Origin: Escherichia coli | Lineage (GTDB): Bacteria; Pseudomonadota; Gammaproteobacteria; Enterobacterales; Enterobacteriaceae | Reading direction: 5' to 3' (one strand) | DNA length: 64,000 nucleotides | Assembly (NCBI RefSeq): GCF_044324875.1 | Contig: NZ_CP172185.1 | Shown here: piece after piece, positions 2,298 to 8,535 of the stretch | Position numbering within the stretch: position 1 is the first letter of the stretch | How the letters are laid out: each line of letters starts with the position of its first letter | The notes under the pieces: generated by a model | What the model saw: the letters and a program-made list of their open reading frames with translations, nothing else | Told to the model about the DNA's origin: nothing | Databases searched by the model: none | Position numbers and translations under genes: made by a program

Positions 2298-4751
2298 TTA
2301 AAAATCAGCCTGATTCGGGATCAGTTTTTGTATAGTGGCTGTTACGTATTTTGCCTGGTGAAGAGCGTCATCCAGAGCATTATGGCGCACGCCTTCGAAT
2401 GGAATTACGCTTCTGGCATTGAAGTCTGTGATTTTCCCCATCTCAACGATTGTGCGTACATCACGATCGTTGCTGTAATGCCACGGACAGGGGATGTCCA
2501 GACGTTCGTATGAGGTGCGCAAAATTGCGTTATCGAACGTTGCGCCATTACCCCACACCTGAACGAATTTTTCATCAGAGTGTTCATTGACGAATTGCCG
2601 AAAACGCAAAAGGGCATCTTTCATTTTTACCTGGTCAGTTAAAATGGCAGCTCTGGCTTCGCTGGACTGCTTCAGCCACCATTCGATGGTGCCACCATCA
2701 GGAACAGCCCCTGTATTCATTGCGTCAGTCAGGCTGATAACGATATAAAATACCGGCCCGATTTCCCCTGTTTCCGGGTCGAAGAAAACCGCACCAATAA
2801 CTACTATGGGTGCATTGGTGTTGGCTCCCATTGTTTCAAGGTCGACTGACAGGTGATTCCATACTCTGCTGGTGGATGTGATTTCACGATGACCGTTCAT
2901 CTTAATTAAGGAATTTTCTGTTTCGCCAGTTTTATTATCGCTGGCGTGGCCCTGAGCGCCGCCAGTGTTCTCCTTGTGCGGATGCTCAGTGCCTTCCGTT
3001 TCCTCCGGATTTTTTTCCTGAGATTCAGCCTGATTTTCTCCATTGAATGTTTCCTGGTATGTTGCGTCACCCATTACTGAGCCACAATCAGGGCAGTTGC
3101 CGCCGCTGGTCTGACCGCAGGCGGTGCAGACTTTTTCCGGTTCCTGTTGCGCTACTGGCTCAGGTTGTTTCGTTTCTGGCTCGTTTTGTAACGCATTTTG
3201 GCTGTTTTGTTCCGCTTTCTGGTCGTTCTGTTCCGTTTCTTGCTGGTTCTGGTTCACTGAATCGCGAGTCTGGACTCCCTTAACCCATTTCAGATCATTC
3301 GGGTCGCTAATCCCTTCAACGAACTCACCACGCGAGGCCGCCAGTAATTTGTCTGCATCGACAGGATTTTTGGGCGGAATGTTTTTCCTAGCTTCATGGA
3401 GTTCTGCCCGCAGTTTCTGATATTTCGCATCAACAGAATTCACCTGCGGCTGAGCATCCAGCGGCTGCGTGTCCGGATGATGTTCAGTTGTATCCGGTTC
3501 CACTGTTTCAGTCGTTGGCTGTTCATCTGCCATTGCGCCAGACGGTTGCGGTTTTTCTTCATCATCCTGTTTTCCTTCTTCTGTTACACGCTGCGGCATT
3601 GGGGCAGAGGAACGACCGCAGGCAATATCCACGATTTCCGGATCAGGGTTGGCATGATCGGTTTCGGTCAGCACTTTATTCAAGTATTCGGTGACGCGCT
3701 GGGGCATAGCCTCTATACCAACCGGTGCTTCTTTCACGGAGGCAACCACGATGGCGCGGGAATAATCCATCCCGCCTGGCATGTTCAGAAAAGCCTTAAG
3801 GAAGACGGAGAAACAGGGATCATTTTCTGCGATAATTTCGTTAACACGTCTGGTATGTGAAGGATGCATGTTGTAAATATCCACATCCATCGAACGAGCC
3901 AGTTTTCCTGTAGCAACATCGAATGCCATTGACGCATTATCATGCACAAAACCTTCGCCGCGATCGGTAAGAATACCGCCGCCAGCGTTAGCGCCGGATG
4001 GTGTGCGACTGATGCGAGAAACACGATTTCCTTTCATCCACTCTTTTGTAAGCAGACCACGATCAGTGTAGTCAGCGTCCAGGTATGCTTCGATGAAGGA
4101 GGTCATCAGTCCCAGGTCTGAATTTACGGGGGCGGGAAAAACTTTGTCAGTGTCCCGCACCAGTTTGTACAAATCCCGAATCTCCAGCGGTTCGAGTTGC
4201 GCTGCTTTATTTGAGATGGCCAGCGCGGTAACGGCGGGAAGTTTTTCTTCCTGTGCGTTATGTAATGAGCGCAGTTCATCCCGCGAAACGTGCGTTACTG
4301 GTTTTTCGCCGCCGTGTTGCGCCAGCCAGCGAACAGGCAGAATCTGACCTGAAACCGGCAGAAGCATATTCTCCTCAATCTCAGTCATGTCTTCGCCATT
4401 AACATTGGTGTTGTCAGTGCTGGCTGGTTTGTCCTGCGCGGATGGCGGAGGCGCGATAAATATCATTGTGATGCCATCTTCGCCGCCTTTTTCATACCGG
4501 TTACAGAATTCGGTATCAAACACGCCTTCCGGTGGAAGGTCATCAACAACGGGCAAATGGACGCGAACAGGTTTTTTAAAGTCGTCTTCATCATAATCGT
4601 TATCATCCATTGCGGTAATGCAGCGGGAGATGGCAACAGATAATTTTTTTGCTGTAGTCCAGTAAAAACCACCTTTAATCCCAAGGCGTTTTCTGACTTT
4701 GTCATTTTTAGCTTCGCAATATAGCGCAAAAGTTTCTTTATCAGTGCTCAT
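2298..4751 (-). CDS. Large exonuclease with C-terminal DnaQ-like (DEDD) 3'-5' exonuclease domain; the type often annotated exodeoxyribonuclease VIII in E. coli prophages
   Basis: 817 aa ORF. C-terminal region has DLETMG...H...D motifs typical of DEDDh exonucleases. Central acidic/Gln-rich low-complexity region and an internal CxxC...CxxC zinc ribbon ([16 protein letters not shown]). Confidence 0.75.
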
Positions 4752-4870
4752 TGATAAACCTCATTGCTGTTTTAAGGTTGTGCGAATCCCTGCCATTGCT
4801 GGCATATAAGAATCGACCCTTATGTATTTATTAAGCTGAATGTCGTATTGGGTCAGTTATTTATTACAGC

Positions 4871-5092
4871 TCACCATGCCACCGCCTTTACAGGTAAACC
4901 ATCACGACCGAGGAAGACTTTAATCATGCGGTCAGTAATGCATGTTTTTGTAGTGAAATCACGGATATAAAGTTTTTGCTTTTCGATATTGTTTGCCGAG
5001 GCGATATATGTCCGGCCTTCGTAAATAACGTAATCGCCGGGAGTGACGCACTGGCGTGGTATTTCATCGGTTCCGAAGTGATGAGCAATCAT
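4871..5092 (-). CDS. Hypothetical small early protein (73 aa)
   Basis: ORF in the leftward early operon between the Rha-like gene and the exonuclease; no recognisable motif. Confidence 0.45.
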
Positions 5093-5137
5093 AATAATCT
5101 CCTTAATAATTTGTGATATGAAGGAAATTCCAGAAAA

Positions 5138-5692
5138 CTATTTAATACTCAGCAACTGCTCGACGGTCATATTTTTAATTGCGCCCCGGTTTATGAGAGT
5201 CCATCCCTGCTTTTCCAGATAAAAACGGAAAGTATCCAGAGTACAGACCAGTGCGCCATCAGGAACTGTTTCGGTGAATTTGATGTAGCCGTGTTCGTCG
5301 AAGCGGATAACCAGGGTGCGGCCATCACCCGGGATTATTTTGTCAGCGGGTGTGGTGTTATTCCGGCGCAGTTCTTCCTCCATGCGGTCGAACTCGGCAA
5401 TGTAGGCTTCCTTGAATGCAGCGGCCTTTTTGCCCGTGAAGCCCATCACAAGGAAAACGAAGCCGTTTTTGGTGATTTGGTACATTGGGAGTTTGCGTCC
5501 TGTTGAGTCGGTGTATTCGCTCGCCTTAAAATTAAGGGCAGTGAACTCAGCGGAGCAGTCCAGTAATTTTATTTTTTGGATAACATTGTCGTGACGCTTG
5601 CCAAAGAATTCCGCGATCGCAACAGACGTAGTGACAGCGCGACCATTTTCAATGGTTACGTCAGGGTGAGAAAGGGTAAGGGTAGTAGCCAT
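5138..5692 (-). CDS. Phage regulatory protein, Rha-like (185 aa from internal start)
   Basis: Track ORF 5138..5989; the ATG at 5692 is preceded by GGAGG with 8 nt spacing. Sequence from MATTLTLSHPDV...AIAEFFGKRHDNVIQKIKLL resembles the Rha family. A terminator-like hairpin sits inside the upstream extension. Confidence 0.65.
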   Translation of the reverse strand: MATTLTLSHPDVTIENGRAVTTSVAIAEFFGKRHDNVIQKIKLLDCSAEFTALNFKASEYTDSTGRKLPMYQITKNGFVFLVMGFTGKKAAAFKEAYIAEFDRMEEELRRNNTTPADKIIPGDGRTLVIRFDEHGYIKFTETVPDGALVCTLDTFRFYLEKQGWTLINRGAIKNMTVEQLLSIK

Positions 5693-5860
5693 AATGGCAG
5701 CCTCCACGTTGAGTATTGATAACTCACCACCGAGGCTTTCCACGACCATAATGGTGGTGAGACGTACAGGGGTGGAAATACCGGTCAACGTAGAACCCGG
5801 CCAGCCTTGCGGCTGCCCTGCACGCCCCACCATAATCTGAATGTGGCTGTGCTTCACGCA

Positions 5861-5884
5861 TAAAAAAACCGCCTGAGCGCGGTT
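5861..5884 (-). terminator. Rho-independent terminator-like hairpin on the minus strand
   Basis: Minus-strand AACCGC-GCTCAG-GCGGTT followed by a T-run; lies between dicF and the Rha-like gene. Confidence 0.5.
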
Positions 5885-6167
5885 GTGCGCTACGTTTGAC
5901 TTCGGGTTTCCACGCCCGGCACCCGGTTTATGAGGTGCAGGTGCACTATAATTCCACCCGTACTGGTTTTCAATAGCTACATTCAACATTTTCTCTTACC
6001 TTTCATCACCGAAGTGAACTTTGTTGATGCGGTGCCAGGTGCCTCCAGGTGACGTTAACCAGTTAACAATTAACGCCGGATACAGAGAATCCACCCATAA
6101 CTCTGTTTTTGGTTTTAACTGTTCCACGTGCGATCAGCCGCATTCACCACATCACAAAATTCACTTT

Positions 6168-6225
6168 AAAAAGGGCGGCAGAGCAGTCACGGAGTAAAAC
6201 TGATACCGCAAAACGTCACCAGAAA
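6168..6225 (-). ncRNA. dicF: DicF sRNA homolog (ftsZ-targeting sRNA of Qin-type prophages)
   Basis: Minus strand reads TTTCTGGTGACGTTTTGCGGTATCAGTTTTACTCCGTGACTGCTCTGCCGCCCTTTTT, nearly identical to the recalled K-12 DicF (one difference) and ending in its own terminator. Lies downstream of a DicA-like repressor as in Qin. Confidence 0.7.
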
Positions 6226-6480
6226 ATTGATAACAGATGGCGTTGCAGCGGGGTTGTCACTCAGGCGCATGGTCAACCTGACAACCCGGTGTCCTCAAGG
6301 GGAAGGGAACCCCGCCATGCTTACCGCCGCGCCATTTCGCGGAGTGCCACAACCGGAAGCGGACGGTCGACGAAAATTTAACGACAGGCTATATATGAAC
6401 CAGCTACCTCGCCGTGCGCTTTCGTGTTGTGTGCCTGCTTTTAACCACGTCAGGCGAGGTGGTATCCTCTGAGGGGTCTG

Positions 6481-6837
6481 TTACCCGAGAGGAAATTGGT
6501 TATGAATACAATCAAGTTTTCTTGCCCAGAATGTGGTGGCGAAGTCTTCGACACATCCTTTAAGCCGCAGGGCTCTGACAGTTTCGCGGGAGCCATCTGC
6601 AAAAATTGTGGTCACCTTGTAACTGAAGATGAGTCCTCGCAATTCGATGAGGAAATCGTTGACAATATCTTCGGTGTAATCACCGGAGCCTTTCTGAAGT
6701 AAAGGCACATACCGCTTAGTTACCGCTCTGATAATTCTTACCTGCCCGGCAATGGCGCTGATGTCAATATAAAGCGCCATTGCTGCTTCTTTGCCGATCC
6801 CGGGATGCCTTCCATTCTGATGTTTGACTTCGCCCAC
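6481..6837 (-). CDS. Hypothetical protein (118 aa) in leftward operon orientation; overlaps the antisense zinc-ribbon ORF
   Basis: GTG start at 6837 preceded by AGGA at about 7 nt; first ORF after the 7066..7096 terminator. No recognisable domain. Mutually exclusive with 6502..6702. Confidence 0.3.
   Translation of the reverse strand: MGEVKHQNGRHPGIGKEAAMALYIDISAIAGQVRIIRAVTKRYVPLLQKGSGDYTEDIVNDFLIELRGLIFSYKVTTIFADGSRETVRALRLKGCVEDFATTFWARKLDCIHNQFPLG
6502..6702 (+). CDS. Small zinc-ribbon protein (66 aa), antisense to the early-left operon
   Basis: MNTIKFSCPECGGEVFDTSFKPQGSDSFAGAICKNCGHLVTEDESSQFDEEIVDNIFGVITGAFLK has two CxxC pairs about 25 aa apart and an acidic tail. ATG at 6502 preceded by GAGAGGAAATTGGTT. 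Confidence 0.4.
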   Translation: MNTIKFSCPECGGEVFDTSFKPQGSDSFAGAICKNCGHLVTEDESSQFDEEIVDNIFGVITGAFLK

Positions 6838-7065
6838 TGAGAAATCCTCTGTTTCCCCTTAACGCCGGGGTAGCGGAACAAAAACCTGCTGCATAGTTAA
6901 AGTTAAACCCTGCCGTCATGTTCATACGCCTCGGGCTGGCTACTTAACCCCTGACCACTGCCTGGTAACTCGAAGTATTGCCCTGCGTTCTGTGGGGCGG
7001 GGTGGGTTGGTGAAATTAGTTTATACAAAAATAAACTTAACAGTCAATCTGCAACTTAACTAAAC

Positions 7066-7096
7066 AGTAAAAAATAACACTCTCTTTGAGAGTGTT
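7066..7096 (-). terminator. Rho-independent terminator downstream of the parE-like gene
   Basis: 9 bp stem AACACTCTC/GAGAGTGTT with a 3 nt loop, followed on the minus strand by ATTTTTTAC. Confidence 0.6.
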
Positions 7097-7121
7097 TAAG
7101 GCTGTGTTGATGGGCAGAGGG

Positions 7122-7406
7122 TTATGTTACAGGGAACTGTCGGCGGGTATGGACTACGTTTACTATTTCAATACTTGAGGTTGTCACGCGGTACAGAATT
7201 ATATAATTGGGGTGAGCCACAATCTCACGTAAGCCTGGCACTCTGTCGCTTGGGGGGTATAAATACGGATGTTCGGATAATGGCAGCACACACCCCCTTA
7301 ATCGCTGCCATAAGCGTTCTGCCGCATCTATGTCGAAACGAGCAATGTAACTAGTTATATCATCCAGGTCGGTATCTGCGCTTTCAGGCCATAACACAGG
7401 TAACAT
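7122..7406 (-). CDS. parE: ParE/RelE-superfamily toxin (ParE2-like) of a three-gene TA cassette
   Basis: 94 aa. N-terminal LWPESADTDLDDITSYIARFDIDAAERLWQRL and C-terminal IVAHPNYIILYRV fit the ParE pattern. Start abuts the stop of the upstream antitoxin. Confidence 0.8.
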   Translation of the reverse strand: MLPVLWPESADTDLDDITSYIARFDIDAAERLWQRLRGCVLPLSEHPYLYPPSDRVPGLREIVAHPNYIILYRVTTSSIEIVNVVHTRRQFPVT

Positions 7407-7598
7407 TTACTGTTCACTCCGTTCCTTGCGTATTTTAGCAAAGCGTTCTGCCATTCTGCGCTCAACTTCGTCATGGGGAATTGCTGGGCGCGGATCTGCA
7501 AGGCTTGCAGCTACTTTGGCTCGCAGCCATTCGTTGTAACTGTTTTCTTGTTCAATAGTTTCAAACTCAGAAACCATTGGTGAAAGGGCCGTATTCAT
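7407..7598 (-). CDS. paaA: PaaA2-like antitoxin (63 aa)
   Basis: ATG at 7598 preceded by GGAGG. MNTALSPMVSEFETIEQENSYNEWLRAKVAASLADPRPAIPHDEVERRMAERFAKIRKERSEQ resembles the recalled PaaA2 antitoxin of O157 prophage three-component systems. Confidence 0.7.
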   Translation of the reverse strand: MNTALSPMVSEFETIEQENSYNEWLRAKVAASLADPRPAIPHDEVERRMAERFAKIRKERSEQ

Positions 7599-7627
7599 GG
7601 CACACCTCCGTCTGTGTATGGTGGTCA

Positions 7628-8026
7628 TTATGCCCGATGCCCTTTCCGGGCAGCGAGCCATCTTTCAATTGTGCGATCCATTAACTCTTTTTTGTCTTTC
7701 ATCTCCTGAAGCATTTGCTCTTGATCTTCCTCTGGAAATGCCTCAAATGTTTGAAGTAGCTCCTTTTGCCTAGGAGTTATTTTTATTATATCTTGTATTC
7801 TGTCATTTTTTTCTTCATTTAACGGTAAGAAGAACCAATACTGAGGATATCCTGTTGCTTCAGATAGTTTATCTAGATTAGCTGCTGTAGGGCTTGAGAT
7901 ACCACAAACCCATCTTTGAACGGATTGTTGAGTAATGCCAATTCTGCGCGCAAGTTCTGCCTGGCTCCAGCCTGTTACCAACAAAAGCTTCCTAATTCTA
8001 AGAGCACTAATTTCGAGTACACCCAT
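7628..8026 (-). CDS. paaR: PaaR-like HTH regulator (DicA paralog); start uncertain (track ORF extends to 8101 from TTG)
   Basis: XRE-type HTH (GWSQAELARRIGITQQSVQRWVCG). C-terminal LTPRQKELLQTFEAFPEEDQEQMLQEMKDKKELM is paralogous to the C-terminus of the adjacent repressor. Sits directly upstream of the antitoxin-toxin pair. Confidence 0.6.
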   Translation of the reverse strand: MGVLEISALRIRKLLLVTGWSQAELARRIGITQQSVQRWVCGISSPTAANLDKLSEATGYPQYWFFLPLNEEKNDRIQDIIKITPRQKELLQTFEAFPEEDQEQMLQEMKDKKELMDRTIERWLAARKGHRA

Positions 8027-8060
8027 CTGATATATCTTGTTTTTAAGAGTATGCTTCCCA

Positions 8061-8432
8061 TCAGGCGCGGCGACCTTGCTGCGCCAACCAACGTGCGACA
8101 AAATCTTCCATTGCTTCTTTTTTGTTTCTTAGTTCTTTTATGATCTCTTGCTGTTCATTATCAGGAAATGCACTAAATATTTGTAGCAATTCCAGCTGGT
8201 TAGGGGTTAATGCTATAGCTCTTGATGATGGAGACTCTGTTATGTCTTCTGGCTCAATATCAAGATAACCCCCTGGCATCCCATATGTTTGTTCAATACG
8301 TCTAGCTGCTTTTTCGCCAAACGTAGCCTTACCGCTCATTAACTGAGATAAGTAACTTTTCTCTTTGGGTGGCAAAGTTCTGTCTTTGAACCACTCTTTG
8401 AGGCGTAAACGCCGAATCTCTCTTGTTTCCAT
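8061..8432 (-). CDS. dicA: Prophage immunity repressor, DicA-like (HTH_XRE)
   Basis: 123 aa. HTH (SYLSQLMSGKATFGEKAARRIEQTYG) and C-terminal LTPNQLELLQIFSAFPDNEQQEIIKELRNK resemble recalled Qin DicA. Divergent from the cro-like gene. Confidence 0.75.
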   Translation of the reverse strand: METREIRRLRLKEWFKDRTLPPKEKSYLSQLMSGKATFGEKAARRIEQTYGMPGGYLDIEPEDITESPSSRAIALTPNQLELLQIFSAFPDNEQQEIIKELRNKKEAMEDFVARWLAQQGRRA

Positions 8433-8535
8433 ACATGCATTATCTTTAGTAATTGCGAAATAAGCAAATACTTGACTGGTTTATTTAGTTACGTATAAAC
8501 TTTTGCTTGCACTAAAGTATGTTGAGATCGAAATC
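8433..8535. promoter_or_regulatory. Divergent immunity promoter/operator region between the repressor and cro-like genes
   Basis: Sigma70-like rightward promoter TTGACT (8472..8477), 16 bp spacer, TATAAA (8494..8499). Flanked by partially palindromic TTTAGTAA / ACTAAAG motifs that may be operators. Confidence 0.5.

Follow-up and report, generated by a model that had tools for sequence, protein, structure and literature searches.

The window analysed here is a stretch of 64,000 nucleotides from Escherichia coli (contig NZ_CP172185.1), and the cassette with which this report is concerned lies on its minus strand in the early operon of a lambdoid (Rac/Qin-like) prophage, downstream of dicF and with kil and exo located downstream of rha. 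RefSeq lists here a 283 aa Rha family phage regulatory protein, and the RNA genes described below are missing. The corresponding long ORF (5138..5989, minus strand), which is referred to here as eta-like, is composed of an N-terminal extension carrying the 'Ash' designation and of the Rha part, according to the RefSeq annotation and Pfam. A shorter rha gene of 184 aa (5138..5692, minus strand) is nested within it and occupies the position of P4 kil. The product of the short gene matches Pfam PF09669 (Phage_pRha) with 109.3 bits against a cut-off of 29.9 (E 1.5e-31, residues 21-106) as well as phrog_995/518, which comprise Rha-like regulators and antirepressors. The long ORF, a GGAGG-ATG at 5705/5692, a hairpin followed by a U-run, and dicF had all been described in a first-pass annotation of this DNA, and all are present on the minus strand at the positions it gave.

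A permissive Rfam scan of window positions 4500-8500 returned three full-length matches above the gathering score, DicF, isrK and C4, all of them on the minus strand. The DicF sRNA (6173-6224, minus strand; RF00039, 67.3 bits against a gathering score of 48) is the upstream neighbour of the module and lies outside it. The spacer from dicF to the module contains a 43-codon GTG ORF (5996..6127, minus strand) that shares its frame with the long ORF; it is ended by a TAA at 5996-5998, which is followed after 6 nt by ATG 5989 of the long ORF. The 43-codon ORF matches phrog_24763, a family of unknown function, with an E value of 1.6e-15. NCBI PGAP annotates a DicB N-terminal pseudogene at this ORF in near-identical genomes, and a BLASTP comparison of the 43 aa product (5996-6127) with complete DicB revealed no similarity. 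A candidate STnc100 RNA at 6020-6161 (minus strand), overlapping the same ORF in the dicF-dicB spacer, reached 28 bits where the gathering score is 47 and was discarded. Homology to ordinary dicF loci, of which thousands of E. coli genomes provide examples, runs out near 6015. The isrK-C4-rha cassette resembles an insertion at the start of dicB (window 5990-6170; L001 3950-4015; L002 2370-2453 and 1286-1474). In strain E30 rha is followed by a complete dicB, whereas in the window rha is followed directly by kil.

Two further features were noted in the surroundings. Slightly more than 1 kb upstream of the cassette, in the sense of the minus strand, lies a three-gene module (7122-8101, minus strand) encoding a HTH regulator (7628-8101), a PaaA2-type antitoxin (7407-7661) and a ParE toxin (7122-7406), which we take to resemble the paaR2-paaA2-parE2 system of O157 prophages. 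Past dicF, on the opposite strand, a 68 aa ORF (6496-6702, plus strand) contains two CxxC pairs and gives sub-threshold zinc-ribbon-like Pfam matches.

IsrK, C4 and the start of rha

IsrK, the seqA-like sRNA of the module, spans 5862..5938 (minus strand) and matches Rfam RF01394 over its full length (67.1 bits against a gathering score of 50, E 2e-13, positions 1-77 of 77); a weak, sub-threshold match to the c4-a1b1 family overlaps it. The RNA contains an a1 site (5906-5914, minus strand) and a b1 site (5890-5899, minus strand). Inside the long ORF there is a putative sigma-70-like promoter, TTGAAA-17-TATAGT (5945..5973, minus strand), here called P_isrK and equivalent to P4 PLE. It is known from its consensus match only, which extends to 10 of 12 positions; its -10 element stops 7 nt short of the 5' end of IsrK, and the position of the promoter is kept in relatives even though their flanks are unrelated. 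IsrK ends in an intrinsic terminator (5860..5884, minus strand) with a 6-bp stem, a 6-nt loop and U7, the hairpin AACCGC-GCUCAG-GCGGUU being located at 5884-5867 and the U7 continuing down to 5860. A generic terminator scan showed no enrichment in the region (3 found, 2.4 expected from shuffles) and is not used as evidence. The hairpin at 5884-5860 is nonetheless beyond chance because it forms the 3' terminus of the isrK match, which covers the whole Rfam model, and the internal terminator that the first-pass annotation had noticed is thus real and is that of IsrK. In each of the seven annotated relatives (7/7), Gifsy-1 among them, the Rha/Ant gene is preceded by the isrK-C4 tandem, which is present in P4 too.

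C4, an antisense RNA of the P4 CI type, spans 5750..5837 (minus strand) and matches Rfam RF01695 with 78.6 bits against a gathering score of 45 (E 6e-15, positions 1-87 of 87). Its minimum free energy fold is that of the family consensus, a long closing stem with two internal hairpins (-47.3 kcal/mol, z -5.0), and among 27 distinct relatives compensatory double changes occur in 9 of the 22 C4 pairs, with almost none broken. The b' loop is located in hairpin 2 (5785-5796, minus strand) and is followed by the a' junction (5772-5779, minus strand). The a' and b' sequences are complementary to two sets of sites, a1/b1 in IsrK and a2/b2 at the rha ribosome binding site (RBS). The second set forms a seqC-like target region (5701..5744, minus strand) made up of a2 (5736-5744) and b2 (5701-5712), the latter containing the rha Shine-Dalgarno sequence GGAGG (5701-5705). 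Furthermore, the 57-nt leader folds into a hairpin that pairs the GGAGG and so hides the Shine-Dalgarno sequence (z -3.45).

The complementarity between C4 and its two partners was followed across 71 non-redundant modules from IMG/VR, which contain 48 distinct C4 loop variants. The C4 loop pairs with the RBS region of its own module at a mean of -32.4 kcal/mol, compared with -21.5 +/- 4.9 kcal/mol for non-cognate combinations, and with its own IsrK at a mean of -33.9 kcal/mol, compared with -26.2 +/- 4.3 kcal/mol. Cognate duplexes are therefore about 8-11 kcal/mol better than non-cognate ones, and the loop, the IsrK sites and the RBS sites co-vary. The duplex of the window's C4 with its own RBS target (-34.9 kcal/mol) ranks first among the 71 targets, and that of the window's IsrK with the C4 loop has a value of -32.4 kcal/mol. 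Some viral contigs harbour two tandem isrK-C4-Rha-type modules that lie 656 nt apart (L035 4805-4887 and 5461-5543; L056 5925-6007 and 6581-6663); the a/b loop specificities of the two modules differ, and the nested gene of the first module is short, at about 120 codons.

The GGAGG at 5701-5705 is located 8 nt before the ATG at 5690-5692, and this start region is 88.9% identical to the start of P4 kil over 45 nt, with N-termini reading MATTLTLSHPD in the window's rha and MATTLTPSHPE in P4 kil. Because the b2 site with which C4 pairs includes its Shine-Dalgarno sequence, and because both the RBS and the N-terminus are homologous to those of P4 kil, ATG 5692 can be recognised from the sequence as a genuine start that would be controlled by an antisense RNA. 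This bears out its earlier designation as the rha start. The Pfam Rha match begins 21 residues after the ATG. Another AUG in frame with rha is located in the 5' end of C4 (5831..5833, minus strand) and corresponds to the first start codon of Gifsy-1 orf45 (PMC4825925). An ATG ORF of 45 codons at 5724-5861 (minus strand), directly after the IsrK U-run and overlapping C4, is orf45-like by length only. It was rejected as the equivalent of orf45: the published ORF begins with the AUG in the 5' end of C4 and runs in a different frame, and the ORF at 5724-5861 matches no Pfam family.

The reading frame across the RNA genes

The 99 codons upstream of ATG 5692 were compared among 36 distinct relatives of one clade, all with a Rha N-terminus of the MAT.. 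or MTTL.. type and with a mean identity of 70% over a 252-nt region. Frame 0 of the extension contains no stop codons at all where 25.8 are expected, and zero stops were reached in none of 2000 column shuffles, a count that assumes column independence and ignores relatedness. The two control frames are as expected, with 74 stops against 75.4 expected in frame 1 and 138 against 128.9 expected in frame 2, and the stops are spread over 13 codon columns in frame 1 and 17 in frame 2 but over none in frame 0. Indels in the extension measure 3 nt. Codon usage was scored as sense-codon log-odds trained on 36 long ORFs of the window; frame 0 obtained 0.141, which corresponds to the 19th percentile of true genes and is above every off-frame window, compared with -0.19 and -0.18 for frames 1 and 2. 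The first-pass annotation, according to which the extension reads like non-coding sequence, had put forward codon usage as a check, and here the outcome went against it, since the score of frame 0 is gene-like and within the range of real genes.

Most relatives have an ATGA overlap in which the long ORF's first ATG shares bases with the stop codon of an upstream ORF; these upstream ORFs are open for 184-563 codons and belong to several unrelated genomic contexts. The window differs in this respect, as its upstream ORF has only 43 codons and its in-frame TAA is separated from ATG 5989 by 6 nt without any ATGA overlap; coupling to the upstream ORF thus appears to be weaker in the window than in its relatives.

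Frame-specific protein constraint is absent from the extension, with pN/pS values of 0.88, 0.84 and 0.93 in the three frames, whereas the same test applied to rha as a control yielded 0.60 in frame and 1.05 and 1.03 out of frame. Variability in the extension likewise lacks a 3-base periodicity (0.226, 0.230 and 0.224 at the three codon positions). AlphaFold assigned a pLDDT of about 24 and no secondary structure to residues 1-109, which is weak evidence given an alignment of 16 sequences, and in the same run the Rha domain served as a control and reached 68-82. The long form of Rha, if it is made, bears an unconstrained N-terminus, since pN/pS is equal across frames and no fold is predicted.

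The equal pN/pS values, the missing fold and the occupation of the extension by a promoter, a terminator and two structured RNAs would all be accommodated if the 99 codons were purely non-coding RNA genes, if only the 184 aa Rha were made and if the long ORF were an annotation artefact that is open by chance inheritance. The frame is in addition closed in Gifsy-1 and other clades, and stops also occur in this frame in L115, a relative whose Rha is of the same type. Such an artefact is nevertheless considered unlikely, as it leaves unaccounted for the complete lack of stops next to two control frames that behave as expected, the restriction of indels to 3 nt, codon usage that is gene-like in frame 0 only, and the recurrence of ATGA overlaps in several unrelated contexts. 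The homologous P4 eta is, moreover, described as translated in the passages of PMC10111431 that deal with it. In modules with these RNAs but different genes downstream, this frame contains 1-6 stops, and the ORF from the C4 AUG extends over 3-45 codons; RNA constraints alone therefore do not hold the frame open.

A more restricted form of translation would start at the AUG in C4 (5833-5831) and proceed in frame into rha, as a coupling of the Gifsy-1 type, with the part further upstream open incidentally. This is the very AUG at which orf45 of Gifsy-1 begins, and anrP expression depends on the translation of orf45 (PMC4825925); most of the stop deficit indeed falls into this part of the ORF, with 18.6 stops expected and 0 observed from the C4 AUG onward. 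However, the IsrK part is stop-free too (7.3 expected, 0 observed), the ORF extends through the promoter to the ATGA overlaps in most relatives, and P4 eta starts upstream of PLE. A coupling confined to the C4 AUG is for these reasons quite improbable.

Taken together, the frame comparisons make it most likely that the long ORF is maintained and conditionally translated, rather than being the over-extension of rha that the first-pass annotation had proposed. That proposal holds insofar as the internal start at ATG 5692 is real, and the 99 codons were rightly described as non-coding to the extent that RNA genes dominate them and no frame-specific protein constraint is detectable, but they are not plain spacer and their frame is kept open. 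In a few modules (IMG/VR loci L082, L067 and L081) the Ash frame is stop-free up to the downstream gene, the assigned start of which lies in another frame, and it runs 300-400 nt past that start; the downstream start or frame may be mis-assigned in these clades.

The 'Ash' domain and a model of nested genes

PF10554 (Phage_ASH) matches residues 14-108 of the long ORF with 53.5 bits against a cut-off of 26, PHROG profiles also take in the extension, and two-domain Rha/Ash proteins are listed in the literature (PMC8951638). On these grounds Ash could be a genuine folded domain that is fused to Rha, the RNA-family matches being incidental. We find this hardly credible, as the extension shows neither frame-specific purifying selection nor 3-base periodicity and is predicted without structure next to a Rha domain that is well predicted from the same alignment, while its conservation is explained by the compensatory base-pair changes in C4 and the co-varying sets of loops and targets. 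PF10554 matches the extensions of both the window and P4, and in the P4 sequence (L008) it falls on the historical 'cI gene product (AA 1-137)' ORF (995-1411), which overlies the CI RNA. A survey of P4 satellites took PF10554 as a marker of epsilon (PMC8628076). The equation of P4 epsilon with 'Ash' made there was rejected, as epsilon (L008 1404-1691) matches PF25738 'Derepression' and not PF10554, and judging from these matches the PF10554 marker of that survey would actually detect the seqA-CI RNA region. The Pfam 'Ash domain' is a translation of these RNA genes. The first-pass annotation had regarded conserved protein sequence across 5693-5989 among homologues as an argument against a non-coding extension; PF10554 formally represents such conservation, but since this is explained by RNA constraints it does not discriminate between the two.

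It is considered likely that the stretch represents an RNA immunity cassette of the P4/Gifsy-1 type which is embedded in a pair of nested genes in the same frame. In the uninduced state the internal constitutive promoter (5973-5945) would produce IsrK, with transcription mostly ending at the terminator (5884-5860), and transcripts that read through would contain C4 (5837-5750). On the model of P4 CI and Salmonella STnc1160, C4 would be processed to a stable antisense RNA whose a'/b' sequences pair with a2/b2 over the rha Shine-Dalgarno sequence and block initiation at ATG 5692; this pairing would probably also allow premature termination. Free IsrK is envisaged to titrate C4 via a1/b1 and thereby to switch rha on, as has been shown for Gifsy-1. 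Upon induction, transcription would enter from the upstream early operon through dicF, although the DicF terminator may limit it, and ribosomes would start at ATG 5989. Their in-frame passage across IsrK, C4 and the target sites should keep the RNA structures and pairings from forming, and the outcome would be a long Rha that is insensitive to C4, together with expression of the downstream kil and exo, as reported for P4 eta. In this scheme Rha itself would act as an antirepressor. The openness of the ORF, its codon usage and the Pfam match say that the extension is coding, whereas the substitution patterns say RNA, and only the nested-gene model reconciles the coding-like with the RNA-like signals.

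A wider proposal, on which we regard the balance as even, is that in a large clade of Rha/Ant genes of lambdoid prophages 'Ash' is not a protein domain but an RNA immunity cassette, kept free of stops solely so that ribosomes from upstream can run through and disable it. If true, this would amount to a translate-through override of antisense-RNA immunity and would generalise P4 eta well beyond satellites, and PF10554 and the matching PHROG families would be the shadows that RNA genes cast in protein space. The implications for annotation are immediate. IsrK, C4 and the putative RNA-controlled internal start are invisible in RefSeq, elements of this kind being missed by genome annotation, and 'Ash domain' calls in studies of Stx phages and satellites are read as protein function. 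Antirepressors of the Rha/Ant type under such control can trigger prophage induction, which has been shown for Gifsy-1 AnrP. Since the sets of loops and targets form many specificities (48 loop variants in the sample), the module is a probable determinant of cross-immunity among prophages and satellites that share an E. coli host, Stx phages included.

Comparison with P4, Gifsy-1 and P1/P7

The immunity region of P4 shares with the window the order PLE - seqA - CI RNA - seqC and the same Rfam families, isrK corresponding to seqA and C4 to CI, which are the published P4 counterparts (PMC3632133; PMC4825925). In both cases a long ORF covers the promoter, both RNAs and the target site, and a short gene is nested in the same frame, with a homologous RBS and N-terminus (MATTLT.SHP) in kil and rha. 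P4 ORF199/eta (L008 812-1411) begins with an ATG that overlaps the vis stop (ATGA), contains seqA/isrK (887-964) and CI/C4 (1072-1159), and nests the 65 aa kil with its ATG at 1215. According to the passages of PMC10111431 that cite Forti 1999, CI is encoded within eta, transcripts from the internal constitutive promoter are terminated via CI/seqA interactions, and Kil is translated on read-through. Translation of full-length Eta is described in the same passages as confined to transcription from the upstream late promoter, as coupled to the alpA homologue and as preventing termination (PMC10111431, citing Forti 1999). The two systems differ in that the nested gene of P4 encodes the 65 aa Kil and that of the window a 184 aa Rha-domain regulator, and in that P4 is a satellite whereas the window carries the early operon of a lambdoid prophage downstream of dicF. 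The start of eta overlaps the upstream stop while that of the window's long ORF follows an in-frame stop after 6 nt, and the a/b specificity sequences of P4 are unlike those of the window.

The isrK - orf45 (STnc1160) - anrP region of Gifsy-1 (Hershko-Shalev et al. 2016, PMC4825925) resembles the window in having an IsrK with its own promoter and a leaky terminator, followed by a C4-like RNA to which IsrK is complementary and by a downstream gene of the Rha/antirepressor type. Both also possess an ORF that begins with an AUG in the 5' end of C4, and in Gifsy-1 this ORF is translated. IsrK supplied in trans raises AnrP translation more than 100-fold in Gifsy-1 (PMC4825925). The same authors remarked that orf45 is conserved as nucleotides and not as amino acids, with which the lack of frame-specific constraint in the extension agrees (PMC4825925). 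In Gifsy-1, however, orf45 is a separate ORF of 45 codons whose stop overlaps the anrP AUG (AUGA) and whose frame is closed upstream, whereas in the window the frame is fused to rha and is open through IsrK and the promoter. The genomic position differs as well, the Gifsy-1 module being located beside antQ and that of the window beside dicF, kil and exo.

The immI region of P1/P7 (c4 - icd - ant) shares with the window a C4 RNA of the Rfam family RF01695. The a'/b' loops of P1 c4 reportedly face two sets of targets, a1/b1 and a2/b2, the loops setting the specificity, and the target is said to overlap a RBS upstream of the antirepressor gene. This a2/b2 site is reported to be located at the RBS of icd, a small gene in its own right whose translation is said to be needed for ant transcription. 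The window differs from P1 in that the Shine-Dalgarno sequence within b2 belongs to rha itself and not to icd, and no separate icd-like ORF is found between C4 and ATG 5692 in the rha frame. We know of no long ORF that spans c4 in P1. With a modest degree of scientific novelty, the locus is a further case of the type known from seqA-CI-seqC within eta/kil of P4 and from isrK-orf45-anrP of Gifsy-1.
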